Source: Alphaproteobacteria bacterium (lineage in GTDB: Bacteria > Myxococcota_A > UBA796 > GCA-2862545). From it: a stretch of DNA of 64,000 nucleotides. The notes beneath the pieces were generated by a model that saw only the letters and a list, made by a program, of their open reading frames with translations, did not search any database and was not told where the DNA came from. Below, piece by piece: positions 11,856 through 57,781 of this stretch. The stretch is taken from NCBI GenBank assembly GCA_020632925.1, contig JACKER010000007.1, positions 52,910 through 116,909 of the forward strand, read 5' to 3'. The position numbers and the translations under genes are program-made. Position 1 is the first letter of the stretch, and every line of letters begins with the position of its first letter.

Positions 11856-12821
11856 ATGCTCCTGTTCTCCCTCATCGGTTGTGGTGCGGGTGCGTCGCCC
11901 GCGGTGATGCCTCGCGCGGAGGCGCCCCGGGACTTCTGGTCCCACTGGGGTGACGGCAAGGCCGAGCTCGACGGATACGCGTACACCGCCCGACGCTACG
12001 GCGAGCTGCGGACCGGCGAGGAGATCCAGGTCTGGGTGACGGAGGACTTCACCGCCGGCCAGCTGGTGAAGTCGAACGGCGGGCACGGCGACGAGTTCCC
12101 CGTGCTCAAGCTCAACGACATCCGGCGCTTCCAGACCGGCATCTACGACTACCACCTGCTGCAGAGCGTGTTCGTCCGGGCGGACGGCAAGCAGGCGCTC
12201 GGGCTGCCGGTCAAGGAGGTGCTGTCGGTGGACGAGTGGTGCGGGGCGGCGTTCGAGGAGCTCGTCGTCCGTGACGGTGTGGTCCACGGCGTCGGCCACA
12301 GCTACTTCGACGGCGAGGGGGACCGCTCCTGGGAGGACGAGCGGGTGCCCGCGATGGGCGTGATGGCGGACGCCCTGCCCTACCTCGCGCGCGGCCTGCT
12401 GGGCGATCCGGTCGCGCCGGGCGCGTCGGTGGCCGTGCAGCTCCGGCACTCGCAGATCGATCAGCGCCTGGCACACCGCGAGCCCGCCTGGGTCCCGGCG
12501 ACGCTGTCCCGGGCCGCCGAGGTGGAGTCCGTCGAGGTGCCCGCGGGCACCTTCGAGGTCCGGCGCTTCGAGGTGACCACGGACGACCCGGCGTGCGGCA
12601 CGGCCAGCGGCATCGCAGCGGACGGCACGACCTGCAAGGCGACCTGGTGGGTGGAGGAGGCGGCGCCCCACCGGATCGTGCGTTGGTCGCGCGACAACGG
12701 GGAGGACGCCGTGCTCACGGGCTCGTTCCGCGGCGCCTACTGGTCGATGCACGGTGAGGGGCAGGAGGAGGCGCGGCGCCAGCTCGGCCTCGGCCTCCAC
12801 CCCTACGCGCCGGCTCCCTGA
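11856..12821 (+). CDS. Lipoprotein, hypothetical.
   Basis: Signal peptide plus lipobox LFSLIGCGAG. GC3 is high. No known domain. Lies 10 nt downstream of the preceding gene. Confidence 0.6.
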   Translation: MLLFSLIGCGAGASPAVMPRAEAPRDFWSHWGDGKAELDGYAYTARRYGELRTGEEIQVWVTEDFTAGQLVKSNGGHGDEFPVLKLNDIRRFQTGIYDYHLLQSVFVRADGKQALGLPVKEVLSVDEWCGAAFEELVVRDGVVHGVGHSYFDGEGDRSWEDERVPAMGVMADALPYLARGLLGDPVAPGASVAVQLRHSQIDQRLAHREPAWVPATLSRAAEVESVEVPAGTFEVRRFEVTTDDPACGTASGIAADGTTCKATWWVEEAAPHRIVRWSRDNGEDAVLTGSFRGAYWSMHGEGQEEARRQLGLGLHPYAPAP

Positions 12822-15800
12822 GCCTGGCGAACGGCGGCCAGCCGCGCGCGGATGGGGTGACCGGGGGGTAGCCCGGCACCACGGACCAGCTCCTCGGCGT
12901 GATCGAGCGCCCGACGCGCCTCCGGGCCCCCGCTCGCCAGCGCCACCACGCGCCACCCTTCCGCCGCTCGGACCAGGCACCCGGCGTCCTCCGCGCGGGC
13001 CGCGATCTCGCCCGCCAACGCGCGCGCCTGCTCGACCGCGCCCGACCCCGCGAAGAGCTCGGCCGCCTGCAGGCCGGCGTCGTCCCGGCCCATCCCCGGG
13101 ATCCGGGCCAGGCTCCTCCACGCGGACCCCAGGTCGGCGACATCGACCGCGACGCCGGCCCGGGAGCGCACCCAGGCCGCGAGGATGCGTGCCGAACACT
13201 CGCGGACGGGGTCGCCTTCGGACGCGAGCGCCACAACCTCCGTCCACTGGATCGCCGCGGCCGGATCGCCGTGTTCGACGAGCAGCTCCGCCATCAGGTG
13301 CGCCGAGGTACGGCGGTCCTCGTCGTCTCGCCGCTCGTCGTGGACCCCGCGCGTGAGCCTCATGGCCTCCGTCGTCGCCCCGCGCGCGCGGGCGATCCGC
13401 GCCTGGACCAGGCGTGCCTGGTGGAGGACGGCCACCCCGTTCGGCGCCAGGCGCAAGGCCTCTCCCGCGACGTGCTCGGCCTGCTCGAAGCGTGCGAGCT
13501 CCACCAGCGCGATGCCGAGGTTCGTCAGCGTCAGCGCGCGGGACTCGTCCAGCCCGAAATCCGCCTTCCACTGGGCCGCCTGCTCGAGCGGGGCGATCGC
13601 CTCCCGGGGACGGCCGAGGTCGACGAGCGTGATGGCCTCGTTCATCCAGAGCGCCGTGACGTGGATGGTGGGCTCGTTCCCGAACAGCCGCCGGGCCCGC
13701 GCGAACCCTTCGAGCGCCCGTTCGCTCTCGTGGAGGTACAGGTCGATCAGCGCGATGTTGGAGATGTCGGAAGCCACGCCGTAGTGGTCTCCCATCCGCC
13801 GGTTCGCGGCGGCGCTCTCCTCGAACCGCTCTCGGGCGAGGGCGTGCGCCCCCGTGAGCCACGCGACGGTCCCCGCGAGGGTCGCGACGCGTCCTGCCAG
13901 GAGCGGGTCGTCGATCCCGCGCGCCATCTCGACCGCTCGGAGGGCTTCCTTCTCCGCTTCCTCGCCGTGCCCCTGCTGAGCCAGCGTCACCGCCCGCTGC
14001 CCGGCCAGGCGGCAGACCCTGGAGCGGTCGCCGAGCCGCTCGCCCAGCGGGATGGCCTCGTCCAGCAACGTCCGGCGCCGCGCCCGTTCGCGCGCCAGCC
14101 CACACGCGATCACCGCGCCCTCGAGGGCGAGGAGGCGCTGCTCGTCCGTCAGCTCTCCGGCGAGCACCCGGTCCCAGAGCTCGACCAGGACGCGCGCAGG
14201 TCCGCGGCGGGTCAGGACGGCGGCGGCGGCGGTGGCACAGCTCACCGCGATCTCGCTCCGGCCCTGATCGACGGCCGCGCGGGTGGCGGCCATCAGGTTC
14301 GCGACCTCGAGGTGGTACCGGTCGTGGTGGCGGGGAGCGTCGATCGTCCGCAACAGCCGGAGCCGATCGGGGCTCCCCAGGGCGGCGAAGACCTCGCCGT
14401 GACGCCGGACGGCCGCGTCGAGCGCTCCGGGCGTGGCCTGGCGTCGGACCCACTCCTGGACCACGACGGACATCCGGAAGCGCTGGTGGGTCGGGTCGAG
14501 GCGGAGGACCGAGGCGTCCACCAGCGTCGCGAGGACGTCGATCGCCCAGGGCGCCTCCTCGTGATCGGCGAGGTCCAGCACCTGCTCGGCCATCTCGAGG
14601 GCCGCCCCACCCTCGAACACGGAGAGCTGCACCATCGCCGCGCGGCCCCAGGCGGGCAGCAGTCCCCAGGACACCGCGAGGGAGGCCGCGAGGCTCCGCT
14701 GGCGCTCGGGACGGTCGCGCTCACCGCCCGCCAGCAGGTCCAGGCGGTCGCGCAGGCGCTCGAGCAGGACGGGAGGCGGCAGCAGGCGGGTTCGCGCGGC
14801 GGCGAGCTCCAGGGCCAGGGGCATCCGCTCGAGCGCGTCCACCAGCGCACCGAGAACGCCGTCGTCCACGGGGACGCCGTGGGCCCGCGCCGCGAACAGC
14901 GCGAGGGCGTCCGCGTGGTCCAGCGGCTCCACCTCGAGCTGCTGCTCGCCACGCAGGCGCAGGGAGACCCGCGTGGTGCACAGGAAGGTGGCGGAGGGTG
15001 CGGTCGCGAGCCAGCGCCCGAGCGTCTCGGGGAGCGCGTGGACCACCTGCTCGAGGTTGTCGAGCACGACGAGGACGGCGCCCCGCGCCCGGAGCGCCTG
15101 ACCCACCTGCTCGGTCGGATCGGTGCCCACCATCGGGATCGAGAGCGCGGCCGCGGTGCGCGCGGTGACCGCGTCGGCATCGCGGGCGTCCGACAGGTCC
15201 ACGAACCAGCGCTCCGCGAAGCGTCCCGCGAGCTGTGCCGCGCGCAGCGCCAGTCGCGTCTTCCCGCTCCCTCCGGGCCCCTTGAGCACCACGAGCCGCT
15301 GGTCGCGCAACAGCGCCGCCAGCGCGTCGAGCTCCCGCACCCGACCGACGAAGGAGCTCCGATCGGGCTCGAGGTTGCCGCCGAACGGGTCGAGCGTCCG
15401 GTCGAGCGAGCCGACGGAGGGCGCGCTCGGCGTGATCGGGCCGTCGAACGTGTCGGAGGAGGAGCCCTCCAGCAGGTCGAGCAGGCTCCGGCTCTCCGCG
15501 TGGCGCGGGCGCAGCTCGGCCAGGGCCTGACGCAGGGCGGCGGCGGAGGACCAGCGCTCCGACGGCGCCTGGCGGAGGCAGCGGGCGACCAGCTCGCCGA
15601 GCCCCGGCACCGCCTGCTCGACGGGATCCAACAGCCCCTCCGCCACGTGACGGTCGGCCTCCAGCACCCGGAAGAGCGCGGGCGCCCCGGTCCCGAACGG
15701 CGGGACACCGGTCGCGAGGTGGGCGAGGGTGGCACCGAGCGCGAACAGGTCGGCCTTGGCGTTCTCCCGGCCGTCGACCTGCTCCTCGGGCATGTACCCG

Positions 15801-16441
15801 GCCGTGCCCGCGGGCGCGTCACGCGTGGCCTGGAGACGCGCCACGCCGAGGTCCGCGATCTTGACCAGCCCGCTGCGGTCCAGGAGCAGGTTGCTGGGCT
15901 TGATGTCGCGGTGGACCATCCCTCCGGCGTCGCCCGCCCGCTGGCCGTGGAGGTGGGCGAGCCCGGCGCAGACCTGCAGCCCGACCTCGACGATCGCCAG
16001 GGGGGGCAGGGGACCGCGCTCTCGTAGCAGGCGAGCGAGCGAGACCCCGTCGCAGAGCTCCATGGCCACGTACCAGCGGCCGTCCACCTCCCCGAGGTCG
16101 TGGATCCCCACGATGTTCGGGTGCTGGAGCATCCCGCCGAGGCGGGCCTCGCGGATCAGGCTGCCGCGGTCGAGCTCGGGATCGCCGCGCAGGACCTTGA
16201 GGGCGACGGGCTTGCGGAACCCCTCGGGCCCCACGAGCCAGGCCTGCCACACCTCGCCGGTGCCGCCCACGCCGAGCCGTCGGAGGATCTCGTAGCGGCC
16301 GAAACGGTCGTTGGGCTGGAGCGGCGCCTGCGGCACGCGCCATCCTACCGCTGGTGGGGCGGGCGTGCGCCGGTCGTGGTACACCGGCGGGATGCGTGCG
16401 TTCCTCGCTCGATCCGCCGGCCTGACCGCGGTCGTCACCAC
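12803..16441 (-). CDS. Ser/Thr protein kinase fused to a STAND-type P-loop NTPase and TPR repeats.
   Basis: Kinase subdomains: G-loop LGVGGTGEVWQA, VALKVL, HRDIKPSNLL, DLGVA and GTAGYMPEE. P-loop LVVLKGPGGSGKTRLA is at about nt 15270. The remainder is long, helical and TPR-like. The start may be GTG at 16441 or GTG at 16336. Confidence 0.9.
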   Translation of the reverse strand: MVTTAVRPADRARNARIPPVYHDRRTPAPPAVGWRVPQAPLQPNDRFGRYEILRRLGVGGTGEVWQAWLVGPEGFRKPVALKVLRGDPELDRGSLIREARLGGMLQHPNIVGIHDLGEVDGRWYVAMELCDGVSLARLLRERGPLPPLAIVEVGLQVCAGLAHLHGQRAGDAGGMVHRDIKPSNLLLDRSGLVKIADLGVARLQATRDAPAGTAGYMPEEQVDGRENAKADLFALGATLAHLATGVPPFGTGAPALFRVLEADRHVAEGLLDPVEQAVPGLGELVARCLRQAPSERWSSAAALRQALAELRPRHAESRSLLDLLEGSSSDTFDGPITPSAPSVGSLDRTLDPFGGNLEPDRSSFVGRVRELDALAALLRDQRLVVLKGPGGSGKTRLALRAAQLAGRFAERWFVDLSDARDADAVTARTAAALSIPMVGTDPTEQVGQALRARGAVLVVLDNLEQVVHALPETLGRWLATAPSATFLCTTRVSLRLRGEQQLEVEPLDHADALALFAARAHGVPVDDGVLGALVDALERMPLALELAAARTRLLPPPVLLERLRDRLDLLAGGERDRPERQRSLAASLAVSWGLLPAWGRAAMVQLSVFEGGAALEMAEQVLDLADHEEAPWAIDVLATLVDASVLRLDPTHQRFRMSVVVQEWVRRQATPGALDAAVRRHGEVFAALGSPDRLRLLRTIDAPRHHDRYHLEVANLMAATRAAVDQGRSEIAVSCATAAAAVLTRRGPARVLVELWDRVLAGELTDEQRLLALEGAVIACGLARERARRRTLLDEAIPLGERLGDRSRVCRLAGQRAVTLAQQGHGEEAEKEALRAVEMARGIDDPLLAGRVATLAGTVAWLTGAHALARERFEESAAANRRMGDHYGVASDISNIALIDLYLHESERALEGFARARRLFGNEPTIHVTALWMNEAITLVDLGRPREAIAPLEQAAQWKADFGLDESRALTLTNLGIALVELARFEQAEHVAGEALRLAPNGVAVLHQARLVQARIARARGATTEAMRLTRGVHDERRDDEDRRTSAHLMAELLVEHGDPAAAIQWTEVVALASEGDPVRECSARILAAWVRSRAGVAVDVADLGSAWRSLARIPGMGRDDAGLQAAELFAGSGAVEQARALAGEIAARAEDAGCLVRAAEGWRVVALASGGPEARRALDHAEELVRGAGLPPGHPIRARLAAVRQAQGAGA

Positions 16442-18374
16442 GCTGCTCGTGGAGACGGGCTGCGGTCGGCTGTCCCAGGAGCCCTGGTGGTTCTCGGAGC
16501 TGGTGCCGGACTCGCCCTGCTACCGGGTCGACCTGATGGACGGCGTCGACGAGGCCTCGACGACCGAGCTGCACGACCTCTACGACTGCCTCGATCAGGG
16601 CGGGATGCTGGCGTCGCTGCAGCCGCTCGACACCGACCTCGACTTCGACACGCGCAGCGGTGACCCCATCGGCATCGAGCTCGCCCGGGTCCTCAACCAC
16701 CTCCCCGAGGTGGACATCGACCCCTTCGCCATCGGCGGCGTGCTGCTCGACGCGCTGAACGCTCCCGACCGCCCCGTGGACGAGCTGCTCGACACCGCGA
16801 CCGAGGCGATCTACGGCTGGCGGACCGCCGAGGTCCGCGACCAGTCCCTCCAGCGCGACGACCCCGTGGCGCTGCAGGCGGGGCTGCTGGCGCCGCTGCG
16901 ACCGGTCCTCCCCGTGGCCGCCACCGCGCTGCTCGCGGACGGTACGGGGGCGCTCGACCTCGCAGGCGACACGCTCGCGGACCCGGAGGCCGGCGAGTGG
17001 CTGCTCACGGTCTCGTCCGTGCTCTCCTCCGAGGAGCCCGCGATCCGTCAGCCGCTCGATCCGCTGCTGGCCGACCTCGGCGTGATGGTGCGGGAGACGC
17101 GGACCCCCGGCAACGACCGGTGGGAGGCGGCGTCCGGGGACAGCCTCCGCGACGTGGCGGACTTCTTCGTGGTCCGCGACAACCCCGTGGTGGACGAGAT
17201 CTCGCCCGCGGTCGCCGACATGCTCGGGGACGACGTGGTCCTCGACGCGCTGGTCCCGATGATCGACGAGCTGGCGGCGGGGGACCACCTCGTGCCGCTG
17301 CCGCCCGAGATCGGCTGGCTCGCGTCGGTCGACACCGACGGCTCCCCACTGACGCCCGCGGAGCTGTCCGCGCTCACGCGCTTCGTCCGCCTGCTCGCCG
17401 ACAACAACCACGAGGTGGACTGCCAGATCCTGTTCTTCCGCTGGCAGCTGCCGAACCTCGCGGTGAGCACGTTGGAGCTCATCGCGGACATGGAGCCCGG
17501 CGAGGTGGTCGACCTGGCGTCGGTGATCGAGTCGTTGACCGGAAACTTCGTCGGAGAGCTGGCGTTCGAGGCTGCCATCGCGACCTGCCCCACCATCTCG
17601 CCCACGGCGTACGACGACCTGCAGGTGCTCGAGACGATCCAGATGCCCGAGTCCGAGGACGTGCTGGTGGCCTTCGTCGCGCTGCTGCAGGTCCTCAAGC
17701 ACGGCCAGCAGGACCACATCCCGGCGTTCGCCGACATGGCGGAGGCGCTGTACGACGCGGGCGGGCTGGAGCCGGGCGAGGAGCTGATCCGCGACATCGC
17801 GCGCGAGAAGGCGTTGACGGACGTGCTGACCGTGCTGCCGGTGCTGGTCCACCCCGAGGAGCACGGCATCACGGCGGGGGGCGCGCCGGCCAACGATCTG
17901 GCGGACCTGCTCGGCATCGTGCGCTGGGCCTTCGTGGTCGATCCCGAGACGGGCCTGACCGGCTTCCAGCGGACGCGGCCCTGGATGGCGCCGGTGCTCG
18001 GTGAGGACGGCACCTGGGTCACCATCGGGAACCTCGCGCGGACGCTGGACACGCCGGGGACGCAGCTGTCGCGCTCGCTGGACCTGATCCCCGTGCTGGT
18101 GGACCTCGACCCGGACCTCGTGCTGCTCGACCAGATCGCCACGGTGCTGCACGACGAGGAGCTGTCGCTGCCCCTCCTCCGGCTGCTCGAGCGCGACGAG
18201 CTCATCGACGACGCGCTCGCCGACCAACCGCCGCCCGACGCGATCGACGAGGTGCCGCTGGCCTTCGGTGGGCGGCTGCTGCTGACCGGCGCCCTCGAGG
18301 ACGTGCTGCGCCTCGTGGACCTGGTGATCGGCTCCATCCCCGGCTCCACGACCTCGAGCACGGGCGGACCGTGA
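16392..18374 (+). CDS. Acidic (D/E/L-rich) hypothetical protein, probably secreted.
   Basis: ATG at 16392 gives MRAFLARSAGLTAVVTTLLVETGCG, which is signal-like. GC3 is strong over 2 kb. The stop overlaps the next gene start in a GTGA arrangement. The 5' end overlaps the divergent kinase 5' end, so start assignment is uncertain. Confidence 0.6.
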   Translation: MRAFLARSAGLTAVVTTLLVETGCGRLSQEPWWFSELVPDSPCYRVDLMDGVDEASTTELHDLYDCLDQGGMLASLQPLDTDLDFDTRSGDPIGIELARVLNHLPEVDIDPFAIGGVLLDALNAPDRPVDELLDTATEAIYGWRTAEVRDQSLQRDDPVALQAGLLAPLRPVLPVAATALLADGTGALDLAGDTLADPEAGEWLLTVSSVLSSEEPAIRQPLDPLLADLGVMVRETRTPGNDRWEAASGDSLRDVADFFVVRDNPVVDEISPAVADMLGDDVVLDALVPMIDELAAGDHLVPLPPEIGWLASVDTDGSPLTPAELSALTRFVRLLADNNHEVDCQILFFRWQLPNLAVSTLELIADMEPGEVVDLASVIESLTGNFVGELAFEAAIATCPTISPTAYDDLQVLETIQMPESEDVLVAFVALLQVLKHGQQDHIPAFADMAEALYDAGGLEPGEELIRDIAREKALTDVLTVLPVLVHPEEHGITAGGAPANDLADLLGIVRWAFVVDPETGLTGFQRTRPWMAPVLGEDGTWVTIGNLARTLDTPGTQLSRSLDLIPVLVDLDPDLVLLDQIATVLHDEELSLPLLRLLERDELIDDALADQPPPDAIDEVPLAFGGRLLLTGALEDVLRLVDLVIGSIPGSTTSSTGGP

Positions 18375-21662: not shown

Positions 21663-22046
21663 ATGGTGTTGCTGATGTGGCTCGCCGCGTGCGACGACAC
21701 GGAGTTCCCGGCGATCGGCGGGGAAGGCGTGGTCGGCGACACGTACGAGGACGTGCAGAAGGTGTTCGAGGCGGACTGCTACGCGTGCCACGGCGCCGCG
21801 TCCGCGCTCGGTGGGCTGGACCTCGAGACCGACGCCTGCGCCGCCATCGTGGGCGTGACGGCCGCGGGGTACGACGGGGAGCTCGTGGTGCCCGGCGACT
21901 CGGCCGCCAGCGTGCTGTGGACCAAGATGGCCGACACGAAGGAGTTCGGCGGGATCATGCCCCCCACGGGCGCGAGCGCGCAGGAGTCCATCGACACGGT
22001 CGCCGCCTGGATCGACCTCGGTGCCGACTGTGGGGGTGCGCGATGA
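21663..22046 (+). CDS. Small lipoprotein with one c-type haem-binding motif.
   Basis: Lipobox LMWLAACDD and CYACH (CxxCH). ATGA overlap with the next gene. Confidence 0.65.
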   Translation: MVLLMWLAACDDTEFPAIGGEGVVGDTYEDVQKVFEADCYACHGAASALGGLDLETDACAAIVGVTAAGYDGELVVPGDSAASVLWTKMADTKEFGGIMPPTGASAQESIDTVAAWIDLGADCGGAR

Positions 22047-23607: not shown

Positions 23608-24945
23608 ATGGATACGGCCTCAGCGCCGGCGGCTGGAGTCCCGCTCGAGTCCGGTCGACGGGGACGGCCGACGTGCGTCTCACGGAGGCCGACCATGAAT
23701 GCACAGGACTGTGACCGCGCCGATGACGACCCGGAGGGCGACCCATCCCGCGCCTTCCTCGACACGCCGCTCGCTCCTCCCCGTCCCGTTCCCTCCCCGA
23801 CATCCGCACCGGACGCGCGCCAGCGCATCGAGGTGTTCCGACACACCCACTTCCCCGATGTCGGCGACGACCAGTGGGGAGACTGGCAGTGGCAGCTCCA
23901 GCATCGCTACCGCGACCTGAAGGGGCTCTCTCGGATCCTGACGCTCAGCGACGACGAGCTCACGACCATCCAGCGCATCGGTGGTCGGCTCCCCGTCGGC
24001 ATCACCCCGTACTACGCGTCGCTGATGGACCCGGACGATCCGTCCGATCCGCTGCGGATGACGATGGTGCCGGTCGAGGCCGAGCTCGTCCAGGGGCCCG
24101 GTGAGGCCGACGATCCGCTCGGCGAGGACGGCCACATGGTCGTGCCGGGGCTGGTCCATCGGTACCCGGACCGCGTTCTGTTCCTGGTGACGAACTTCTG
24201 CGCGACCTACTGCCGCTACTGCACGCGCGCCCGGCTCGTCGGCCACACCGGCGAGTACCACTTCAACAAGGCGCAGTACGAGAAGGCGATCGAGTACATC
24301 GCGGCGCATCCGGAGGTCCGCGACGTGCTGCTCAGCGGCGGCGACCCCCTCACCATGGGGGACGACCGCCTCGAGTGGCTGCTGGAGCGGCTCCGCGCCA
24401 TCCCGCACGTCGAGTTCCTGCGGATCGGCACGAAGGTCCCCCTGGTGCTCCCGCAGCGCGTCACCGAGAAGCTGACGTCGATGCTGAAGCGCTTCCACCC
24501 GCTGTGGATGAGCGTCCACGTCATGCACCCGAACGAGCTCACGCCCGAGGTCGCGCAGGCGTGCGACCGTCTCTCCAGCGCGGGCATCCCGCTCGGGAGC
24601 CAGACGGTGCTGGTCCGCGGCGTGAACGACGACGTGGAGACGATGCGCCGCATGGTGCACGGGCTGCTCAAGATCCGGGTTCGTCCGTACTACCTGTACC
24701 AGTGCGACCCCATCTCGGGCTCCGCCCACCTGCGCACGCCGATCGAGAAGGGCCTCGAGCTGGTGGCCGGGCTGCGGGGCTTCACGACCGGCTACGGCGT
24801 GCCGCAGTTCGTCGTGGACGCGCCGGGCGGCGGCGGGAAGATCGCGCTGCAGCCCACGTCCGTGGTGGGTCGGGACGGCGACGACGTGCTCCTCCGCAAC
24901 TACGAGGGCAACGTCTTCCGGTACCGCGACCCGGTGGGGGCCTGA
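23608..24945 (+). CDS. kamA: Lysine 2,3-aminomutase (KamA/AblA family) radical SAM enzyme.
   Basis: CATYCRYCTR (CxxxCxxC radical SAM motif), PLP-Lys motif APGGGGK, and YYLYQCDP. The length fits KamA rather than EpmB. An alternative start is ATG at 23695. Confidence 0.9.
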   Translation: MDTASAPAAGVPLESGRRGRPTCVSRRPTMNAQDCDRADDDPEGDPSRAFLDTPLAPPRPVPSPTSAPDARQRIEVFRHTHFPDVGDDQWGDWQWQLQHRYRDLKGLSRILTLSDDELTTIQRIGGRLPVGITPYYASLMDPDDPSDPLRMTMVPVEAELVQGPGEADDPLGEDGHMVVPGLVHRYPDRVLFLVTNFCATYCRYCTRARLVGHTGEYHFNKAQYEKAIEYIAAHPEVRDVLLSGGDPLTMGDDRLEWLLERLRAIPHVEFLRIGTKVPLVLPQRVTEKLTSMLKRFHPLWMSVHVMHPNELTPEVAQACDRLSSAGIPLGSQTVLVRGVNDDVETMRRMVHGLLKIRVRPYYLYQCDPISGSAHLRTPIEKGLELVAGLRGFTTGYGVPQFVVDAPGGGGKIALQPTSVVGRDGDDVLLRNYEGNVFRYRDPVGA

Positions 24946-24950
24946 CGGTC

Positions 24951-25469
24951 ATGGGAATCCATGGCTGCGCGACCCGGCTCTGGGGTTGTGCCGGACACGC
25001 GCTCATCGGGCAGACCTGCTGCCAGGGGACGGAGATCCTGGTCACGTCGCGAGACCGGGAGCGGATCGCCGCCTTCACGGCGAGGACCGACTTCTTCGAG
25101 CGGGCTCTCCCGATCGACCCGGTCTACCTCGACCAGGACGACGATCCGAACTGGCTCGTCTGGGCGTTCGACACCGACGGGACACGCCACGTCCTGAAGC
25201 GGGAGCCGAACGGCGACTGCGGGTTCCTGGGTCACCTCGGGTGCACGCTACCCCTCGACGTCCGGCCGCTGATCTGCCGCCTCCACCCCTACGAGTACAC
25301 CGAGGACGGCGTCACGGGCGTGAGCAGCCAGTGCCCGGACGAGGTCGTGCCGCCGGGGAGCACCATCGTCGAGGTGCTGGGGATGGTGCCGGACGAGGCC
25401 GAGCGCTGGCGCGACCAGATCTACGCCGAGCTCCGCGCGGATCACCTCGAGCGGGGAGGGAAGCCGTGA
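24951..25469 (+). CDS. YkgJ-family (CxxCxxCC-type) zinc/iron-chelating Cys-cluster protein.
   Basis: HGCATRLWGCAGHALIGQTCCQG, plus the hallmark block NGDCGFLGHLGCTLPLDVRPLICRLHPY. Starts 5 nt after the kamA stop. Confidence 0.7.
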   Translation: MGIHGCATRLWGCAGHALIGQTCCQGTEILVTSRDRERIAAFTARTDFFERALPIDPVYLDQDDDPNWLVWAFDTDGTRHVLKREPNGDCGFLGHLGCTLPLDVRPLICRLHPYEYTEDGVTGVSSQCPDEVVPPGSTIVEVLGMVPDEAERWRDQIYAELRADHLERGGKP

Positions 25470-26446
25470 GGATCGGATTCACCTACGATCTGCGCGACGA
25501 CTACCTCGCGATGGGCTTCGGCGAGGAGGAGACCGCGGAGTTCGACCGCGTGAGCACGATCGACGCCATCGAGGGTGCGCTGCGCGAGCTCGGCCACGAG
25601 GTCGAGCGCGTCGGGCACGTCAAGGCGCTCGTCGGGCGGCTGGCGCAGGGCGCGCGCTGGGATCTCGTGTTCAACATCGCCGAGGGGGTGCGCGGGGTCG
25701 GCCGGGAGGCGCAGGTCCCCGCGCTGCTCGAGGCCTACGACCTCCCGTACACCTTCGCGGACCCGCTCGTGGCCTCGCTCACGCTGCACAAGGCGATGAC
25801 CAAGCGGGTGCTGCGCGATCTCGGCGTGGCGACCACGGACTTCCGGGTGGTCGAGCGGGAGGCCGATCTCGACGCCGTGGACCTGCCGTTCCCGCTGTTC
25901 GTCAAGCCGCTCGCGGAGGGCACGGCCAAGGGCATCACCAGCACGTCGCGCGTGACCACCCGGGACGAGCTGGCCCGCGAGGCGATGCGCCAGGTCCGGG
26001 AGTTCCGTCAGCCCGTGCTCGTCGAGCCGTACCTGTCGGGGCGGGAGTTCACCGTCGGCATCACGGGCACCGGGGACGCCGCGCGCGCGCTCGGCACGAT
26101 GGAGATCGTGATGAAGGCGAACGCGGAGCCCCACGCGTACACCTACGTGAACAAGGAGAACTCCGAGGAGCTGGGCGAGTTCCCGCTGGCACCTCCGGAG
26201 TGGGCGGCGCTGGCGGAGGAGCTGGCGCTGCGGGCCTGGCGCGGGCTCGGCTGCCGGGACGCGGGTCGCGTCGACGTGCGCGCCGACGACCACGGCGTGC
26301 TGCACGTCATGGAGCTCAACCCGCTCGCCGGGCTGCACCCGACGCACAGCGACCTGCCGATGATCGCGACCGCGAAGGGCGTGTCCTTCGTGGAGCTGAT
26401 CGGGCGGATCGTCGCCTCGGCCGCCGAGCGCTGCGCGGAGGCCTGA
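25466..26446 (+). CDS. ATP-grasp ligase, D-Ala-D-Ala ligase-like.
   Basis: Ddl-like N-domain (DLVFNIAEGVRG...), ATP-grasp core (FPLFVKPLAEGTAKGI...EPYLSGREFTVG) and C-terminal MELNPLAG. GTG start overlaps the upstream stop (GTGA). Confidence 0.8.
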   Translation: MRIGFTYDLRDDYLAMGFGEEETAEFDRVSTIDAIEGALRELGHEVERVGHVKALVGRLAQGARWDLVFNIAEGVRGVGREAQVPALLEAYDLPYTFADPLVASLTLHKAMTKRVLRDLGVATTDFRVVEREADLDAVDLPFPLFVKPLAEGTAKGITSTSRVTTRDELAREAMRQVREFRQPVLVEPYLSGREFTVGITGTGDAARALGTMEIVMKANAEPHAYTYVNKENSEELGEFPLAPPEWAALAEELALRAWRGLGCRDAGRVDVRADDHGVLHVMELNPLAGLHPTHSDLPMIATAKGVSFVELIGRIVASAAERCAEA

Positions 26447-27411
26447 TGAGGGTCGCCCTGCTCCACGAGCGGCTCTCCGGGGACGCTCGCACCGACGAGA
26501 AGGACGCCCTCGTCCAGCGCGACGAGCTCGCGGCGGCGCTGCGTCGCCTCGGCCACGAGACGGTCTTCGCAGACCTCGATCTCGACCTGGCGACCGCGAC
26601 GCGACGTCTCCGCGAGCTCGCGCCCGACGTGGTCTTCAACCTCGTGGAGGCCGTCGGGGGGCAGGCGCGGCTGGTCGACGTGGTGCCCGGCCTGCTCGAC
26701 GGTCTCGGCCTGCCCTTCACCGGCAACGGGCAGGTGGCGATGTTCCTCACGAGCCACAAGCGGGTGGCGAAGGAGCGCCTGGGCGCCCTCGGGCTGCCGA
26801 CGCCAGCGCTGCTCGGCGATGGTCCGCGCGTGGGCCGGTGGATCGTGAAGCCCGTGTGGGAGGACGCCTCCGTCGGCATCGACGACGGCGCCGTGGTGGA
26901 CGCCGACCAGGTGGACCGTGCGTTGCGGGAGCGCGGCGCGGTTTACGGCGAGGTGTTCGCCGAGGCGTACGTCGAGGGGCGGGAGCTCAACCTCTCGCTG
27001 CTCGCGGACGGCGACAGTGTGGTGTGCCTGCCGCCCGCCGAGATCGCGTTCGAGGGGTTCCCCGAGGGGAAGCCGCGGATCGTCGGGTACGCGGCGAAGT
27101 GGGACGAGGGCTCGTTCGAGTACGCGCGGACCCCTCGCACGCTGGACTTCCCCGACGACGACGCCCCGCTCCTGCGGCGGGTGGCCGACCTCGCCGTCCG
27201 CTGCTGGTACGGCTTCGGGCTCACGGGCTACGCCCGCGTGGACTTCCGCGTCGATCGGGACGGGCAGCCCTTCGTCCTCGAGGTCAACGCCAACCCCTGC
27301 CTCGCGTCGGACGCGGGCTTCATGGCGGCCTCGGCGCGGGCGGGGCTCGGGGTGGACGCCGTCGTCGCGCGGCTGCTGGACGACGCGCTCACCCGCGCGA
27401 GGAAGGTCTGA
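26446..27411 (+). CDS. Second ATP-grasp ligase, D-Ala-D-Ala ligase-like paralog.
   Basis: Same architecture as the first (DVVFNLVEAVGG..., WIVKPVWEDASVGI..., EVNANP). ATG overlaps the upstream TGA (TGATG). Confidence 0.8.
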   Translation: MRVALLHERLSGDARTDEKDALVQRDELAAALRRLGHETVFADLDLDLATATRRLRELAPDVVFNLVEAVGGQARLVDVVPGLLDGLGLPFTGNGQVAMFLTSHKRVAKERLGALGLPTPALLGDGPRVGRWIVKPVWEDASVGIDDGAVVDADQVDRALRERGAVYGEVFAEAYVEGRELNLSLLADGDSVVCLPPAEIAFEGFPEGKPRIVGYAAKWDEGSFEYARTPRTLDFPDDDAPLLRRVADLAVRCWYGFGLTGYARVDFRVDRDGQPFVLEVNANPCLASDAGFMAASARAGLGVDAVVARLLDDALTRARKV

Positions 27412-27413
27412 CC

Positions 27414-29159
27414 ATGTTCCGCATCCGTCGGCTGTTCGACGACACGCTGCCGCTGGACGCCCGCGAGATCGCGCAGGTCCAGGACATCCTCCGCGCGCGG
27501 TTCTCGGCCGTCCGGGACGACGAGATCACGAACCTCCCGGCGCGGCTGCGCGACCCGGTGAAGTACGGCTGGCGCTACCTGCTGTTCGTCGCGGACGACC
27601 TGCGCGGCCAGGTGCGCGGGTTCGCGCTGATCGCGCACGATCCGAAGCTCGAGTTCGTCTACCTGGACTGGATCGCCAGCGGCAACGGCGCGGCGGGCGG
27701 CGGCGTCGGCGGTGCCCTGTACGAGCGGGTCCGCGACGAGGCGAAGGCGCTGCGCGCACGGGGCGTGCTGTTCGAGTGCCTGCCGGACACGAAGGGGGAC
27801 GTGAGCGACGCCGAGCTCAAGGAGAACGCCGCGCGGATGCGGTTCTACGAGCGGTACGGCGCGCGTCCGATCGTGAACAACGACTACCGGGAGCCCGTGG
27901 GCGACACGCCCGACCCCGGGTTGCCCTACCTCATGCTCGACCCGCTGGACGGCGAGCCGTTGGGCAGCGCCCGGGCCCAGCGCGTGGTCGCCGCCATCCT
28001 CGAGCGCAAGTACGCGTACCTGTGCCCGCCGGACTACGTCGCGAGGGTGGCGGCGTCGTTCCGTGACGACCCGGTGCAGCTCCGGCCCTTCCGCTACGTG
28101 AAGCCGGGCGCGGCGTCCCCGTCGTCCGAGACCCCCCGCGCCGACATGCTCGTCGATCTCGTGGTCAACGAGCAGCACGACGTCCACCACGTCCGCGACC
28201 GCGGCTACGTGGAGGCGCCCGTCCGCGTCCGCGCCATCCTGCGGGAGCTCGAGCCGAGCGGGCTGTTCCGCCGCGTGGAGGCGCGCAGCTTCCCCGATCG
28301 CCACATCCGGGCGGTCCACGACGGCGCCTTCGTCGACTACCTCAAGCGCGTCTGTGCCGGGATCCCGCCCGAGCGCAGCGTCTACCCCTACGTGTTCCCC
28401 GTCCGGAACGCCGCGCGGCCCCCCAAGGAGCTGTCGGTCCGCGCGGGCTACTACTGCATCGACACGTTCACCCCGCTCAACGCGAACGCGTACCTGGCGG
28501 CGCGTCACGCCGTCGACTGCACGCTGACCGCGGCGGACGCGGTGCTCTCGGGCCGCCGGCTCGCCTACGCCCTCGTCCGGCCGCCGGGTCACCACGCCGA
28601 GCGCGCGACCTTCGGCGGCTTCTGCTACTTCAACAACGGCGCGGTGGCGGCGCACTACCTCTCGCAGCACGGCCGCGTGGCCATGCTCGACGTGGACTAC
28701 CACCACGGCAACGGGCAGCAGGACATCTTCTACGAGCGCGCGGACGTGCTGACCGTCTCCCTGCACGGCCACCCCTCGTTCGCCTACCCGTACTTCAGCG
28801 GCTTCGCCGACGAGAAGGGGAGGGGTGCGGGCGAGGGGATGAACGTCAACTTCCCACTGCCCGAGACGCTGGACGGCGCGGGGTACCGGACGGCGCTGCG
28901 GAAGGCGGTCGGCGAGGTGCGTCGCTTCTCCCCGAACTTCCTGGTGGTCGCGCTGGGGCTCGACCCCGCGAAGGGCGACCCCACGGGGACCTGGACGCTG
29001 GCCCCGGTGGACTTCCGGCGGAACGGCGAGATCATCGGCGCGCTGCGCCTACCGACGCTGGTGGTCCAGGAGGGCGGCTACCGGACGCGCTCGCTCGGGA
29101 ACAACGCGCGGAGCTTCTTCGAGGGGCTGGTGGCCGGGATGTACGGGAGCGATCGATGA
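27414..29159 (+). CDS. Fusion protein: N-terminal GNAT-like acetyltransferase fold plus C-terminal HDAC/acetylpolyamine amidohydrolase (AcuC/AphA-type) deacetylase.
   Basis: N-terminal block LDWIASGNGAAGGGVGGALYERV resembles GNAT motif A. The C-terminal half has PPGHHAERATFGGFCYFNNGAVAA, DVDYHHGNGQQDIF and LVVQEGGY, which are HDAC zinc- and substrate-binding motifs. Confidence 0.8.
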   Translation: MFRIRRLFDDTLPLDAREIAQVQDILRARFSAVRDDEITNLPARLRDPVKYGWRYLLFVADDLRGQVRGFALIAHDPKLEFVYLDWIASGNGAAGGGVGGALYERVRDEAKALRARGVLFECLPDTKGDVSDAELKENAARMRFYERYGARPIVNNDYREPVGDTPDPGLPYLMLDPLDGEPLGSARAQRVVAAILERKYAYLCPPDYVARVAASFRDDPVQLRPFRYVKPGAASPSSETPRADMLVDLVVNEQHDVHHVRDRGYVEAPVRVRAILRELEPSGLFRRVEARSFPDRHIRAVHDGAFVDYLKRVCAGIPPERSVYPYVFPVRNAARPPKELSVRAGYYCIDTFTPLNANAYLAARHAVDCTLTAADAVLSGRRLAYALVRPPGHHAERATFGGFCYFNNGAVAAHYLSQHGRVAMLDVDYHHGNGQQDIFYERADVLTVSLHGHPSFAYPYFSGFADEKGRGAGEGMNVNFPLPETLDGAGYRTALRKAVGEVRRFSPNFLVVALGLDPAKGDPTGTWTLAPVDFRRNGEIIGALRLPTLVVQEGGYRTRSLGNNARSFFEGLVAGMYGSDR

Positions 29160-29632
29160 AGATGCGGGACGAGGTGGTGGCGGCGGACGAGGCGGCCGTG
29201 CGCGCGCTGGTGGCGGCGACGCGGATGTTCCACGACGACGAGGTCGATGTCGCGGCGGAGCTGGTCCGCGAGCGGCTGACCAAGGGGGACGAGAGCGGGT
29301 ACCACTTCCTGATGGCGGACGCCGAGGACGGCTCGCTCTCCGGGTACGCCTGCTTCGGGCCCATCCCGTGCACGCGGTCGAGCTGGGACCTGTACTGGAT
29401 CGCGGTGGACCCGGGGCTGCAGGGGCAGGGGCTCGGGCGCGCGCTGCTCGAGGCCTCCGAGGGGCGGGTGGCGGCCCTCGGGGGAACGCGCGTCTACGTC
29501 GACACGTCCGGGCGCCCCGACTACGAGCCCACCCGAGCGTTCTACGAGCGCTGCGGTTACGCCGTCGGCGCCCACCTCCGCGACTTCTACGACGTGGGCG
29601 ACGGCAAGGTGATCTTCGAGAAGGTCCTCTGA
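29156..29632 (+). CDS. GNAT-family N-acetyltransferase.
   Basis: 158 aa; GNAT motif A QGQGLGRALLEASE. ATGA overlap with the upstream gene. Confidence 0.8.
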   Translation: MKMRDEVVAADEAAVRALVAATRMFHDDEVDVAAELVRERLTKGDESGYHFLMADAEDGSLSGYACFGPIPCTRSSWDLYWIAVDPGLQGQGLGRALLEASEGRVAALGGTRVYVDTSGRPDYEPTRAFYERCGYAVGAHLRDFYDVGDGKVIFEKVL

Positions 29633-32076: not shown

Positions 32077-33102
32077 TCAGCCGCTGGGCTTTCTCGGGGG
32101 CTGGGCACGCCAGGCGTCGGGCGTCGTCCCGGTCCAGCGCTTGAACGCCCGGTGCAGCACCGAGGGCTCGGCATATCCGAGGCGCCAGGAGATCTCGGCG
32201 ATGTCGGCGCCCGCCGTCAGCAGCTGCTCGGCGGCGACCCGGCGCACGGTGTCCAGCTCGTCGGCGAAGCTCGTGCCCTCGGCCTTCAGGCCGCGCTGCA
32301 GCGTGCGTGGGCTGGTTCGCAGCGTGCTGGCGACGGTGACCAGGCTGGCCCCGCCGAGGAGGTGGTCGGCGAGCGCCTCCTCCAGCACCCCGCGGACCCG
32401 CTGGCCGACGCCGTCGCCCTCGCGCAGCGCCTCCAGGTCCCGGGTGGCCTGGGCCTCGAAGTGCTCGGCGAACATCGGGTTGCCCGTGACCACCGGGCTC
32501 GCCATCGTCTCGCGGCTCATGGCCAGGTACGTCTGCCCGGCGCCGAAGCGGACCGGGCAGTCGAACCACGCCTCGTACTCGGACAGATCTCCCTCGCGGG
32601 GATGCTCGAACACCGCCTCCACCAGCGGCACGCGGCGGCCCAGGGCCCGGTTCGCCGCCAGCAGACCCGACGCCAGGTTCTCCTCGCGCAGGTGCACCGA
32701 GGCGCGGCGCTCGGGCCGGCGGAGCTCGTAGCGGTACCGCGGGGGTTCGGCGGCGCGGTCGAGCGCGCAGCGGTAGGCGCTGGTCCACAGCCGCGAGAAC
32801 CGGGCGAGCCGGTCGATGGCCTGCCCGAAGTCGCGGCTGGCGAAGAACAGCAGGCCCGGCAGGGCGATGGTCTCGAGATCGTGGAGGCGGGCGACGTACA
32901 GGCCCAGGCGGTCGTCCCCCAGCAGATCCTCCGCGGCCTCGAGCAGGGCCTCGACGTGTGCCCACGGCTGGCGCACGCGCAGCAGTGACGTGGACGCGGG
33001 GACGCCCGCCAGCTCGAGCAGCTGGGCGCGGGGGGCTCCGAGCTCGACCAGGTTGTCGATCAGCCCGCGCACCAGGACGGAGGCGACCATCGGTTCGGAC
33101 AT
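32077..33102 (-). CDS. AraC-family transcriptional regulator.
   Basis: C-terminal AraC helix-turn-helix: ADIAEISWRLGYAEPSVLHRAFKRWTGTTP. Confidence 0.85.
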   Translation of the reverse strand: MSEPMVASVLVRGLIDNLVELGAPRAQLLELAGVPASTSLLRVRQPWAHVEALLEAAEDLLGDDRLGLYVARLHDLETIALPGLLFFASRDFGQAIDRLARFSRLWTSAYRCALDRAAEPPRYRYELRRPERRASVHLREENLASGLLAANRALGRRVPLVEAVFEHPREGDLSEYEAWFDCPVRFGAGQTYLAMSRETMASPVVTGNPMFAEHFEAQATRDLEALREGDGVGQRVRGVLEEALADHLLGGASLVTVASTLRTSPRTLQRGLKAEGTSFADELDTVRRVAAEQLLTAGADIAEISWRLGYAEPSVLHRAFKRWTGTTPDAWRAQPPRKPSG

Positions 33103-42582: not shown

Positions 42583-46155
<3,573 letters not shown>

Positions 46156-46163
46156 GGGTGCTC

Positions 46164-47060
46164 CTAGGGGGAGGCCTCCGGCGCGGGGGTGGGCGCCGGC
46201 TCGGGTGCGGTCGGGGTCTCCGACTCGGTCGGGGCCGGGGTTTCCGGCTGGTCGGGCGTCACCGGCTCTCCGTTGGAGCAGCGGGCGGCGTGGCGGTACT
46301 CCACCGTCTGGGCGCCGTGGAACCGCCACCCGAACACCGCGAAGCCGAAGGAGAAGGCCTCGGACGACGGGAACACCTTGCCCCCGTGGATCGTGCCGCG
46401 GATGTGCACCTCGGCGTCCCTGATCGTCCAGCGGGGGATGGAGCCCGCCTTGAAGCTCTCGGGGAACGTGAGGTCGAGCGCGGTCGGCAGCGTGCCCCCG
46501 CCCGGGAAGAAGATGGCGGCGTCCGCCTCGCCGTGCCCGCCCTCGAGCGGCAGCGCGCGGTGCAGGACCACGCCCTGACGGAGGTCGTCCCACTCGGCCC
46601 ACGAGGTGTACGCCTCGCCGGTGAGCTCGTCGAGCACGCTGCGCAGCGTGTTCGAGGCCTCCGCGTTCTCCTCGAGGCCCGCGTCGCCCATGGGCTTTCC
46701 GTCGGGCCCGGCGACCGTGACCTTGCTGCCCACGAGCTTGCCGACCAGCGGCGCGAACCGTGCCTCGCGCACGTCGTACACCCGCATGGGGAGGTCCTTG
46801 CCCTCCCACTGTTCCTCGCCGAGCGGGCGCAGCAGGATCGAGCCCCAGATGCCGTCCGTGGTCCGTCCGGCGAACACGGCGTCCCCACGGCTGCCCCCGA
46901 AGCGCCCCACGTCCCAGTCCCAGGAGCCCTGGCCGACCCACTCCCAGCACCCGCGGGGCATGTCGACGATGAGGTCGGCGGTGTCCTCCCATCGGCCGAC
47001 GTCCTGGAGGTCGACGTTGGGGGGCATGGCGGCGTGTGCGGCGACGGCTGGGAGGAACAT
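46164..47060 (-). CDS. Secreted hypothetical protein; paralog of 10980..11846.
   Basis: [14 protein letters not shown] signal-like start. Blocks shared with 10980..11846. Pro/Thr-rich tail [24 protein letters not shown]. Lies 6 nt upstream of the YyaL-fusion gene. Confidence 0.6.
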
Positions 47061-47245
47061 GGCCGGAGCACGTAACCCTCGTGCGTGGCGTCGGTCAGGG
47101 AAGAAGCGTGGTGTGGCGGAGCCGGGGTCGGTCGGATTCGTGGCCGGTGCTCCCTCGACGTTCAGCTCGCTTCGATTCTGTGACTTTCGACCGGAGAAGA
47201 CCATTCCGGTCGAGCGCGGGGCCACGCGTCCCGCAAGGTGTACAC

Positions 47246-52599: not shown

Positions 52600-52612
52600 G
52601 ATCTCCTCCGGT

Positions 52613-57468: not shown

Positions 57469-57484
57469 GGGAGTCCTCTGGAAA

Positions 57485-57781
57485 TCAGGGGTCGAAGTCG
57501 ATCTTCATTCGTACGAGCCGCACGCCACCCGGCGCGGGCATCAGGGTGTCGCGCCACTCCGCGCCATCGAAGGCGTAGCGGACCTGCACACCGCGAGCGC
57601 CGCCGCGCAGGATCTCGGGGACCCGGGTGGGGTCGTTCTCCGCGAGGGTGGCGAGCTCGCTCGGTCCACCCTTGACGAGCACGTCGAGCACGGTGGCGTG
57701 GTCGCGCAGGTCGGCGAGCAGCGTGCGCAGGGTGGCGTCGTCCAGCAGACCCTCCTGCAGCTCGGGCAGCTCCGCGCTCAC
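57485..57781 (-). CDS. Small hypothetical protein in the nap operon.
   Basis: GTG start overlaps the ferredoxin stop (GTGA). GC3 is high. 98 aa. Confidence 0.45.

Follow-up and report, generated by a model that had tools for sequence, protein, structure and literature searches.

Among the closest described systems to the locus considered here is the AblA/AblB pathway of methanogens and some bacteria, whose operon, like the present one, pairs a KamA-family lysine 2,3-aminomutase with a GNAT acetyltransferase. A KamA-family aminomutase making beta-lysine is also part of the EpmA/EpmB system, which modifies EF-P. In NAGGN synthesis (Ngg), a GNAT together with an ATP-grasp enzyme produces a dipeptide osmolyte that bears an N-acetyl group, and in glutathionylspermidine synthetase/amidase (Gsp) a synthetase fused to its opposing amidase controls how much of an amine conjugate is present. 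Amino acids are attached to proteins by RimK and TTL enzymes, and streptothricin resistance consists in acetylation of the beta-amine of beta-lysine. Beta-lysine solutes are known from anaerobes (PMC1224877, PMC9337991). Here, we describe an operon whose core enzymes are likely to produce a small beta-lysine compound not described before. No operon of this composition was found described in the searchable literature, as had been surmised in a preliminary description made from the sequence alone.

The operon occupies positions 23608-29632 of the window, the whole 64,000-nucleotide stretch of DNA that was analysed, and consists of six consecutive + strand coding segments. It is real and tightly packed: a GC3 frame plot places the frame switches at the junctions, and the junction sequences reveal a 5-nt gap between kamA (g1) and g2, a GTGA overlap between g2 and g3, a 1-nt overlap within TGATG between g3 and g4, a 2-nt gap between g4 and g5, and an ATGA overlap between g5 and g6. 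For g3, the conserved N-terminus MxIGLTYDLR is included only from the GTG codon, which supports this start. The layout is that of the preliminary description, and its family assignments (KamA, YkgJ-like, two ATP-grasp enzymes, GNAT plus Hist_deacetyl, and GNAT) also agree with the Pfam and NCBIfam matches.

The first gene (g1; 23608..24945, +) encodes a KamA-family radical SAM/PLP enzyme of 445 aa, predicted to be an L-lysine 2,3-aminomutase. Its score with the KamA subfamily model TIGR00238 is 363 bits, above the cut-off of 199, and it matches the C. subterminale enzyme LAM (2A5H) at 434 bits. Residues C198/C202/C205, R207, D367, D404 and K411 align with C125/C129/C132 (the CxxxCxxC motif), R134, D293, D330 and K337 of LAM, and the aligned residues are kept in 26 of 29 operon orthologs. 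Judged by this alignment, g1 keeps all the lysine-binding residues of lysine 2,3-aminomutase, and the earlier proposal that it makes beta-lysine stands as a prediction from the conserved substrate and cofactor residues. The closest equivalog model is AblA, although the score of 461 bits is below its cut-off of 525; g1 is also under the cut-offs of the glutamate- and arginine-equivalog models. Assignment of g1 as EpmB was rejected: the EpmB model gives 265 bits where 369 are needed, and an epmA-like gene (LysRS paralog) is absent from the vicinity of the operon, so that an EpmB-type kamA beside an overlooked epmA, a possibility raised in the preliminary description, is not what the locus holds.

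The accessory second gene (g2; 24951..25469, +, 172 aa) encodes a YkgJ/UPF0153-like Cys-rich protein. It scores 20 bits against PF03692 (CxxCxxCC/YkgJ-like), below the gathering score of 23, with the Cys motif conserved; in an alignment with the orthologs of three loci (L005, L012 and L016), which lie at the same position as in the window, C13, C23, C24, C90, C98, C109 and C128 are invariant. The next two genes encode paralogous ATP-grasp ligases of Ddl fold, AG1 (g3; 25466..26446, +, 326 aa) and AG2 (g4; 26446..27411, +, 321 aa), which are 32% identical. Both match Dala_Dala_lig_C in Pfam and NCBIfam, AG2 with 68 bits against PF07478; the closest folds are those of small-molecule ligases in the Ddl clade, and the structure of AG1 is much closer to Ddl than to PylC. 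Both nonetheless fall far below all Ddl and Van cut-offs (for AG2, the best Ddl model gives 98 bits where the cut-off is 243). Each retains the complete set of ATP-grasp catalytic residues, while the D-Ala-binding triad E15/S150/Y216 is replaced and extra acidic residues appear; AG2 carries the replacements H63->E, S150->A, Y216->W, S281->A and L282->G. Wherever both coordinates were checked, AG2 directly follows AG1; the pair is adjacent and ordered in all kamA loci of the set but one (contig-truncated), and all loci of the set with detected ligases have them beside kamA. The possibility that these are genuine cell-wall ddl genes, conserved elsewhere without kamA, was therefore rejected: the Ddl cut-offs are failed, the D-Ala triad is lost, and the pair is tied to kamA rather than to mur/fts genes.

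The fifth gene (g5; 27414..29159, +, 581 aa) encodes a bifunctional protein with a weak GNAT match and a Hist_deacetyl match. Its N-terminal GNAT domain (about residues 1-240; 27414-28133) belongs to a narrow, dedicated family and is not of the SpeG/PaiA type. The C-terminal Zn deacetylase domain (about residues 260-575) is nearest to solved ApaH enzymes, with which it aligns end to end at about 33-40% identity, and its catalytic residues are all present and invariant. The fusion noted earlier is thus confirmed, while its "HDAC" label needs refinement, since by this likeness the domain is of the acetylpolyamine-amidohydrolase type, a small-molecule deacetylase. The GNAT-deacetylase architecture goes unmentioned in a survey of bacterial deacylases from 2024 (PMC11532494). 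The last gene (g6; 29156..29632, +, 158 aa) encodes a stand-alone GNAT acetyltransferase that scores 55 bits against PF00583 and has weak RimI/MshD-like matches; neither it nor the N-terminal GNAT of g5 matches AblB (TIGR03827). In about 37 of the best 120 g5 homologs, a g6-like GNAT is fused to the g5 C-terminus, giving a 750-aa GNAT-deacetylase-GNAT protein.

Five of the six operon genes (KamA, AG1, AG2, the GNAT-deacetylase fusion and the GNAT) form a core module. These families are neighbours in 30 of the 44 informative loci, namely those with adequate flanks, in at least six phyla, and they therefore co-occur more than expected by chance. Carriers, all of those found being metagenome-assembled genomes (MAGs), belong to Planctomycetota, Desulfobacterota, Chloroflexota, Bacteroidota, Alpha/Gammaproteobacteria and Eisenbacteria; gene order is permuted between loci and content is constant. 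The YkgJ-like gene, by contrast, occurs in 4 of about 33 modules, and so the expected co-occurrence of six families holds for five, the YkgJ-like protein being an occasional accessory rather than a core partner of kamA. In the other 14 informative loci the fusion stands alone, with module genes absent within 6-10 kb on either side and heterogeneous neighbours, and it may therefore function without need of beta-lysine. In two loci that lack the module (L062 and L022) the fusion adjoins other ATP-dependent amide-forming enzymes. Sequences are 50-66% identical across phyla, well above what is usual in specialised small-molecule pathways, and this might just as well indicate that the substrate is a conserved macromolecule. 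Saline or marine sites are the source of some carriers, and others are freshwater, soil or sludge MAGs, the habitat data being anecdotal; at one locus, an HSP20 gene with a sigma-54 promoter-like site upstream directly precedes kamA. The saline carriers and this promoter-like site weakly and anecdotally favour a stress-solute role.

In the window, 63 nt separate the operon from the upstream gene. Downstream, a seventh + strand ORF of 799 aa begins 27 nt after g6 if its start is GTG 29660, or after about 108 nt if it is ATG 29741, the more likely start, ahead of a signal-peptide-like segment. Gaps of this size leave no room for a small gene in the flanks. The 799-aa gene is never conserved with the module in the neighbourhoods of the locus set and is not a module member, nor was a precursor peptide gene found linked to the module, or an osmotic riboswitch or other known RNA element upstream of the operon.

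What might these enzymes make? Starting from the observed gene structure, folds, intact catalytic residues, conserved linkage and fusion, we put at about even chances a cytoplasmic module that converts L-lysine into a small N-acetylated beta-lysine amide or (iso)peptide whose acetylation state is controlled. The step order, ligation partners, acetylation sites, product and role are those that we infer, and oligomerisation of beta-lysine is pure conjecture. KamA would convert L-lysine to beta-lysine. Each Ddl-fold ligase would then turn a carboxylate into its acyl phosphate and couple this to an amine, forming one or two amide bonds, for example with beta-lysine going onto a second (beta-)lysine, at the epsilon- or beta-amine, or onto a different small amine; the radical-SAM lysine mutase PylB and the Ddl-like ligase PylC offer a precedent. 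Free amines would be acetylated from acetyl-CoA by the two distinct GNAT domains, and the amidohydrolase-type domain would strip acetyl from a slender aliphatic amine, either as deprotection or to turn over or tune the pool, with maker and breaker in one protein as in glutathionylspermidine synthetase/amidase. In modules that contain it, the YkgJ-like protein probably helps KamA with a metal cluster. The likeliest role of the compound would be that of a compatible solute inside the cell or of a polyamine-like metabolite.

The deacetylase, nearest to bona fide acetylpolyamine amidohydrolases, also suits a different scheme in which the ligases attach beta-lysine to amines of the putrescine, cadaverine or spermidine type and the GNAT/ApaH protein is a borrowed general polyamine acetylation/deacetylation unit. 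The acidic substitutions in both ligase pockets, the occurrence of the fusion alone in varied contexts, and an arginine decarboxylase gene 5 kb from the module in one locus (L001) agree with such conjugates. However, no polyamine biosynthesis gene is conserved with the module, the N-terminal GNAT is a dedicated type, and in the tree the fusions that stand alone are scattered among those linked to the operon, with no separate general clade; we regard this scheme as unlikely. Modification of a protein or peptide, in which the ATP-grasp pair would put beta-lysine on a conserved protein, at a side chain or terminus, in RimK/TTL-like fashion and the GNAT and deacetylase would edit it, draws on the high identity across phyla and is less probable again: the best structure and sequence neighbours are the small-molecule enzymes Ddl and ApaH, KamA is not EpmB-type, and no candidate substrate gene is conserved beside the module or would fit in the window. 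Moreover, a review reports canonical EpmAB beta-lysyl modification of EF-P in Planctomycetota and Chloroflexota too (PMC12856214).

A gene set that covers beta-lysine synthesis, ligation, acetylation by two enzymes and deacetylation could also yield a cationic beta-lysine oligomer held inert by N-acetylation, much as streptothricin is, and activated by deacetylation; the N-terminal GNAT profile has a weak, non-significant PDB match to a putative streptothricin acetyltransferase (E 0.26). This pro-toxin or self-protection scheme, advanced in the preliminary description, found no support and is very unlikely. No exporter, immunity, regulator, NRPS/PKS, target-protein or further tailoring or biosynthetic gene is conserved with the module in the locus neighbourhoods, the module is absent from PADLOC, and the very high conservation and a fusion tree that broadly tracks taxonomy are unlike typical antibiotic clusters. 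Furthermore, with a cytoplasmic deacetylase that is fused to an acetyltransferase, activation of the toxin would take place inside its producer. Least probable of the four is a plain N-epsilon-acetyl-beta-lysine osmolyte pathway, an AblA/AblB analogue with a degradative deacetylase and with ATP-grasp genes that are unrelated or true ddl. AblA as the closest KamA model, the presence of a GNAT, and the beta-lysine solutes of anaerobes speak for it; the constant ligase pair, its failure at the Ddl cut-offs without the D-Ala triad, and GNATs unmatched by AblB speak against it.

How, then, does the proposed N-acetylated beta-lysine amide module relate to known systems? With AblA/AblB it would share an intracellular beta-lysine derivative as product and carriers that are mostly anaerobes, but its KamA is below the AblA cut-off, its GNATs are not AblB, and its obligatory parts also include two ATP-grasp ligases and an ApaH-type deacetylase. 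Unlike EpmA, which is class II synthetase-like, the ligases here are ATP-grasp enzymes. In the pyrrolysine pathway, PylB is not a KamA-family/PLP aminomutase, and one ligase acts with PylD and without acetyl chemistry, whereas two ligases are present here. Ddl and Van ligases differ in their triad and genomic context. ApaH and the polyamine N-acetyltransferases likewise pair a GNAT and an amidohydrolase acting on aliphatic amines, yet here the two activities are fused and usually embedded in a beta-lysine/ligase operon. Ngg, with its GNAT and ATP-grasp enzyme, and Gsp, with its fused opposing activities, resemble the module; they use other ATP-grasp subfamilies, another hydrolase family and no beta-amino acid, and are related in sequence at the superfamily level only.

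The window is 72% G+C, so that mechanically called ORFs are abundant in it. In the third-position GC frame plot, six successive coding segments stand out on the + strand between 23608 and 29632. The first, kamA (23608-24945), is separated by a 5-nt gap from the gene for a small Cys-rich protein (24951-25469), which shares a GTGA overlap with the first of two ATP-grasp ligase genes, AG1 (25466-26446). A TGATG overlap joins AG1 to the second ligase gene, AG2 (26446-27411), and a 2-nt gap leads to the gene for a fusion of an N-terminal GNAT domain with a C-terminal deacetylase of the acetylpolyamine amidohydrolase (ApaH) type (27414-29159; hereafter the fusion). The last gene, which encodes a stand-alone GNAT (29156-29632), is entered through an ATGA overlap. 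The junction sequences reproduce exactly those of the preliminary description, and Pfam and NCBIfam bear out its assignment of the genes to families.

Non-coding DNA around the operon is scarce: 63 nt on the upstream side and, on the downstream side, between 27 and about 108 nt according to where the next + strand ORF begins. Neither a sigma-70 promoter nor an intrinsic terminator was found in this region of the window, and no riboswitch or RNA of another kind turned up ahead of kamA, either in the window or in the seven loci searched besides it. The downstream ORF (29660/29741-32059) has a strong coding signal and would encode 770-800 aa; to judge from its sequence, the most likely start is the ATG at 29741, which precedes a signal-peptide-like stretch (MRSVVLVALATPLTAWA). 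It has no match in Pfam, NCBIfam or PADLOC and, being secreted-looking and never conserved with the operon genes in other loci, was set aside, as were the YceI gene upstream and the AraC gene at 32077-33102, neither of which accompanies these genes elsewhere. The PADLOC library of anti-phage defence systems gave no matches.

How widely is this arrangement conserved? We fetched 84 loci from other genomes and compared them with the window proteins by tblastn; 44 had enough flanking DNA to be informative. In 30 of these, kamA, both ATP-grasp genes, the fusion gene and the small GNAT gene are immediate neighbours, and in the other 14 the fusion gene stands alone. The Cys-rich gene is found at this position in just three further loci (L005, L012 and L016), so that of the six-family linkage envisaged in the preliminary description, five families stand as a module and the sixth does not belong to its core. 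Carriers of the module are found in Planctomycetota, Desulfobacterota, Dehalococcoidia, Bacteroidales, Alpha- and Gammaproteobacteria and Eisenbacteria. Gene content is constant and gene order differs between lineages: kamA-AG1-AG2-fusion-GNAT, kamA-AG1-AG2-GNAT-fusion, AG1-AG2-GNAT-kamA-fusion and kamA-fusion-AG1-AG2-GNAT all occur, as do divergent arrangements, and AG2 follows AG1 immediately in every locus inspected. Moreover, among the best 120 homologs of the fusion, about 37 combine the fusion and the small GNAT in a single 750-aa GNAT-deacetylase-GNAT protein, which is independent evidence that the two act jointly. No transporter, regulator, further enzyme or other extra gene is consistently linked to the module loci.

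Sigma-54 activator genes adjoin the module in four loci (L001, L004, L009 and L010), and -24/-12 elements were found in L001 and L004 only, both with an adjacent activator, which are too few to generalise. In L001 (4915-7891, from a 7.4-Mb genome), the activator gene and a small HSP20 ORF lie just upstream of kamA, which is preceded by a near-consensus -24/-12 element (TGGCACATGTGTTGCT); genes for GroES/EL, DnaJ, MgtE and arginine decarboxylase are in the vicinity, and the neighbourhood may represent a stress-regulon context.

The fusion protein of the window has an identical counterpart among the MAG proteins of GenBank and belongs to a family with more than 7,600 matches, 60-67% identical across phyla, and at least 595 GTDB species representatives. 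Cluster members checked for named isolates carried MAG labels only, and a plasmid collection yielded only plain ApaH homologs, neither a fusion nor a cultured carrier being among them.

The KamA protein aligns with lysine 2,3-aminomutase of C. subterminale (LAM; structure 2A5H) over 366 residues (434 bits). By this alignment, C198, C202 and C205 correspond to the CxxxCxxC cysteines C125, C129 and C132 of LAM, K411 to the PLP lysine K337, and R207, D367 and D404 to Arg134, Asp293 and Asp330. In LAM, Arg134 holds the lysine carboxylate, and Asp293 and Asp330 hold the epsilon-ammonium group. The cluster cysteines, the PLP lysine and the lysine-holding residues are retained in 26 of 29 operon-linked orthologs. 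Among the family models, only that of the KamA subfamily (TIGR00238) is passed, with 363 bits against a cut-off of 199. The score is highest on the AblA equivalog (TIGR03820), yet it stays under the cut-off there (460.7 versus 525.4 bits), and it is well below the cut-offs of the glutamate and arginine aminomutase models. The sub-cut-off equivalog scores, together with the conserved lysine-holding residues, mark the enzyme as one of a separate KamA clade, with lysine as its predicted substrate. An EpmB enzyme beside an overlooked epmA, which had been raised as a way in which the initial interpretation might fail, is not what we find: the EpmB model gives 265 bits where 369 are required, and no EpmA or tRNA-synthetase-like gene is present among the annotated neighbours (roughly 9.3-36.9 kb of the window).

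AG1 and AG2 are paralogs (32% identity), and both have the ATP-grasp fold. Their residues were compared with those of E. coli DdlB, the numbering of which was checked. The ATP/Mg catalytic set is intact in both proteins (K97, K144, E180, E187, K215, R255, D257, E270 and N272). The D-Ala1-binding triad of DdlB, Glu15/Ser150/Tyr216, is replaced by A/T/E in AG1 and by D/A/W in AG2, although in the AG1 sequence a Glu one column later may substitute for Glu15. Several replacements are acidic: His63 becomes Glu in both proteins, and Tyr216 becomes Glu and Leu282 becomes Asp in AG1 only. All Ddl and Van cut-offs are missed widely, the best scores being 161 (AG1) and 98 (AG2) against 243 bits for NF002378. 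With such scores and a replaced triad, the pair does not represent the cell-wall ddl genes that the preliminary description had left as a possibility. Public names are systematically misleading here: both ligases (window 25466-27411), like homologs of AG1, carry the label 'D-alanine--D-alanine ligase', and the fusion (window 27414-29159) is called 'histone deacetylase family protein' or 'AcuC-like'.

The deacetylase domain of the fusion resembles ApaH over its full length and has the His-His pair, the catalytic Tyr and the zinc ligands Asp/His/Asp; throughout the family, no catalytic or zinc-binding residue varies. Its N-terminal GNAT has 455 representatives at 50% identity among 1.84 billion proteins, carried by full-length proteins of about 580 or 750 aa, and is by this sequence measure a narrow, dedicated family. 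Both the GNAT fold and its acetyl-CoA-binding motif A are present, and a profile of the N-terminal domain run against PDB sequences returned non-significant GNAT matches only. The stand-alone protein is an ordinary small GNAT. Neither it nor the fusion matches the AblB model TIGR03827 at E<=0.01. The Cys-rich protein reaches 20 bits on PF03692 (YkgJ/UPF0153, CxxCxxCC), for which the gathering score is 23, and seven cysteines including a CC pair are invariant in four orthologs.

The stand-alone fusions have heterogeneous neighbours with no common partner found. Since they are interspersed with the operon-linked copies in a neighbour-joining tree (one without support values), we rejected, on that tree, the idea that they form a separate subfamily. 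In one stand-alone locus (L030), kamA is split into two adjacent ORFs (2280-3449), probably by frameshift or decay; ATP-grasp genes are absent, and the fusion gene, which is intact, follows 6.6 kb downstream. This suggests either dispersal or loss of the partners. Elsewhere, at L062 (7305-9248, - strand), a stand-alone fusion lies beside a methyltransferase fused to a Ddl-like ATP-grasp domain, and another stand-alone locus (L022, 8107-18785) combines a GNAT, an M20 peptidase, the fusion, a transglutaminase-DUF2126 protein, a circularly permuted ATP-grasp/alpha-E protein and a transglutaminase. Both fit, anecdotally, a general partnership of the fusion with amide ligases.

Several other genes in the window bear on its host. 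Those for heme-copper oxidase subunit I (51241-52623, - strand), a multicopper oxidase-cytochrome c fusion (55990-57504, -) and a TAT-exported molybdopterin oxidoreductase (58898-61606, -) indicate that the host is not a strict anaerobe, despite its oxygen-sensitive radical-SAM aminomutase. The taxonomic label of the window is uncertain. Proteins P0001, P0130, P0133 and P0134 have identical or 96%-identical counterparts in MAGs labelled 'Alphaproteobacteria bacterium' and also in MAGs labelled 'Myxococcales bacterium'. The stretch 21663-22046 codes for a cytochrome c domain of Planctomycete type, and the operon proteins cluster with copies from Phycisphaerae/Planctomycetales. Three further genes are large: one for a Ser/Thr kinase-STAND NTPase-TPR protein (12803-16519, -), one an ORF of 692 aa that has a strong coding signal but matches no family (16296-18374, +), and one for a 1,500-aa thioredoxin(DsbH)/redoxin/NHL-repeat protein (42583-47094, -). 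A modular type I polyketide synthase runs off the window start (2-7150, +), and the part inside has two KS-AT-KR-ACP sets and an epimerase/dehydratase-like domain; it was rejected as part of the module, being 16 kb away and unlinked in other loci.

What might the module make? KamA would convert lysine to beta-lysine, and AG1 and AG2, as small-molecule ligases, would carry out two ATP-dependent amide-bond formations; their pockets have become more acidic, which would suit cationic diamino substrates. The two GNAT domains would acetylate two different amines, and the ApaH-type domain would take an acetyl group off a slender aliphatic amine. Fused as they are, acetyltransferase and deacetylase could protect and then deprotect an amine during assembly, or could control how large and how charged the pool is. 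The lack of any exporter, immunity, carrier-protein or precursor gene, together with the short flanks, points to a free intracellular product built from primary metabolites. We favour an N-acetylated beta-lysine (iso)peptide; the product, its ligation partners and the order of steps are as we infer them from the enzymes. Beta-lysine derivatives and the N-acetylated dipeptide NAGGN act as solutes in other organisms, soda-lake, salar, Black Sea and marine sediment samples are the source of several carriers, and one module locus (L001) is set among heat-shock genes. These observations make it plausible, and weakly suggest, that the product acts as a compatible solute or polyamine-like metabolite.

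The relationship of the deacetylase to ApaH would agree with metabolism of beta-lysyl-polyamine conjugates, but no polyamine genes are linked to the module, and we consider this unlikely. Perhaps the target is a protein instead: conservation and the RimK/LysX-like structural neighbours speak for protein modification, and the high cross-phylum identity could also reflect a conserved macromolecular target. The closest relatives are small-molecule enzymes, however, and no substrate gene is linked, so that such a function seems quite improbable. The preliminary description had entertained a pro-toxin with acetyl-based self-resistance. Every accessory gene expected of one is missing: families for streptolidine/gulosamine, NRPS-type beta-lysine oligomerisation, resistance and export are absent from the operon and its conserved neighbours, which makes a pro-toxin very improbable. 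The obligatory, non-Ddl ligases contradict both a plain AblAB-type pathway and genuine ddl genes, and we give these readings hardly any likelihood.

Tentatively, then, we propose that the module makes a new class of cytoplasmic metabolite, an acetylated beta-lysyl (iso)peptide that would be assembled by two Ddl-derived ligases, without ribosome or NRPS, with its charge and pool size set by a single bifunctional acetyltransferase/deacetylase. Hundreds of bacterial species in at least six phyla, for the most part uncultured and largely anaerobic, would use it as a compatible solute or in place of polyamines. If so, a new branch of beta-lysine metabolism would take its place beside lysine fermentation, the AblAB osmolyte, EF-P modification and antibiotics, and two large misnamed families, "D-alanine--D-alanine ligase" and "histone deacetylase family protein", would gain a function. 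Many of the GTDB species with the GNAT-ApaH fusion belong to sediment and subsurface lineages, and a maker and a breaker of an acetyl-amine, fused in one protein, are attractive to enzymology as an example of pool control that is built in.

Neither a GNAT fusion nor an aminomutase is mentioned in a survey of bacterial deacylases from 2024 (PMC11532494). The searchable literature yielded only canonical ablAB, EF-P and natural-product papers and no description of the module, in keeping with the earlier statement that no operon of exactly this composition was known to have been characterised; this is a weak negative as regards the aminomutase-name phrase, which never matched. The enzyme families are familiar, and their assembly is new, conserved and widespread. 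Among the nearest known systems, AblAB likewise pairs an aminomutase with a GNAT, PylB/PylC likewise pairs a radical-SAM lysine mutase with a Ddl-like ligase, and ApaH works with polyamine acetyltransferases, but each lacks the full composition of the module. Ngg and glutathionylspermidine synthetase/amidase also lack that composition and are akin to the module by logic only.
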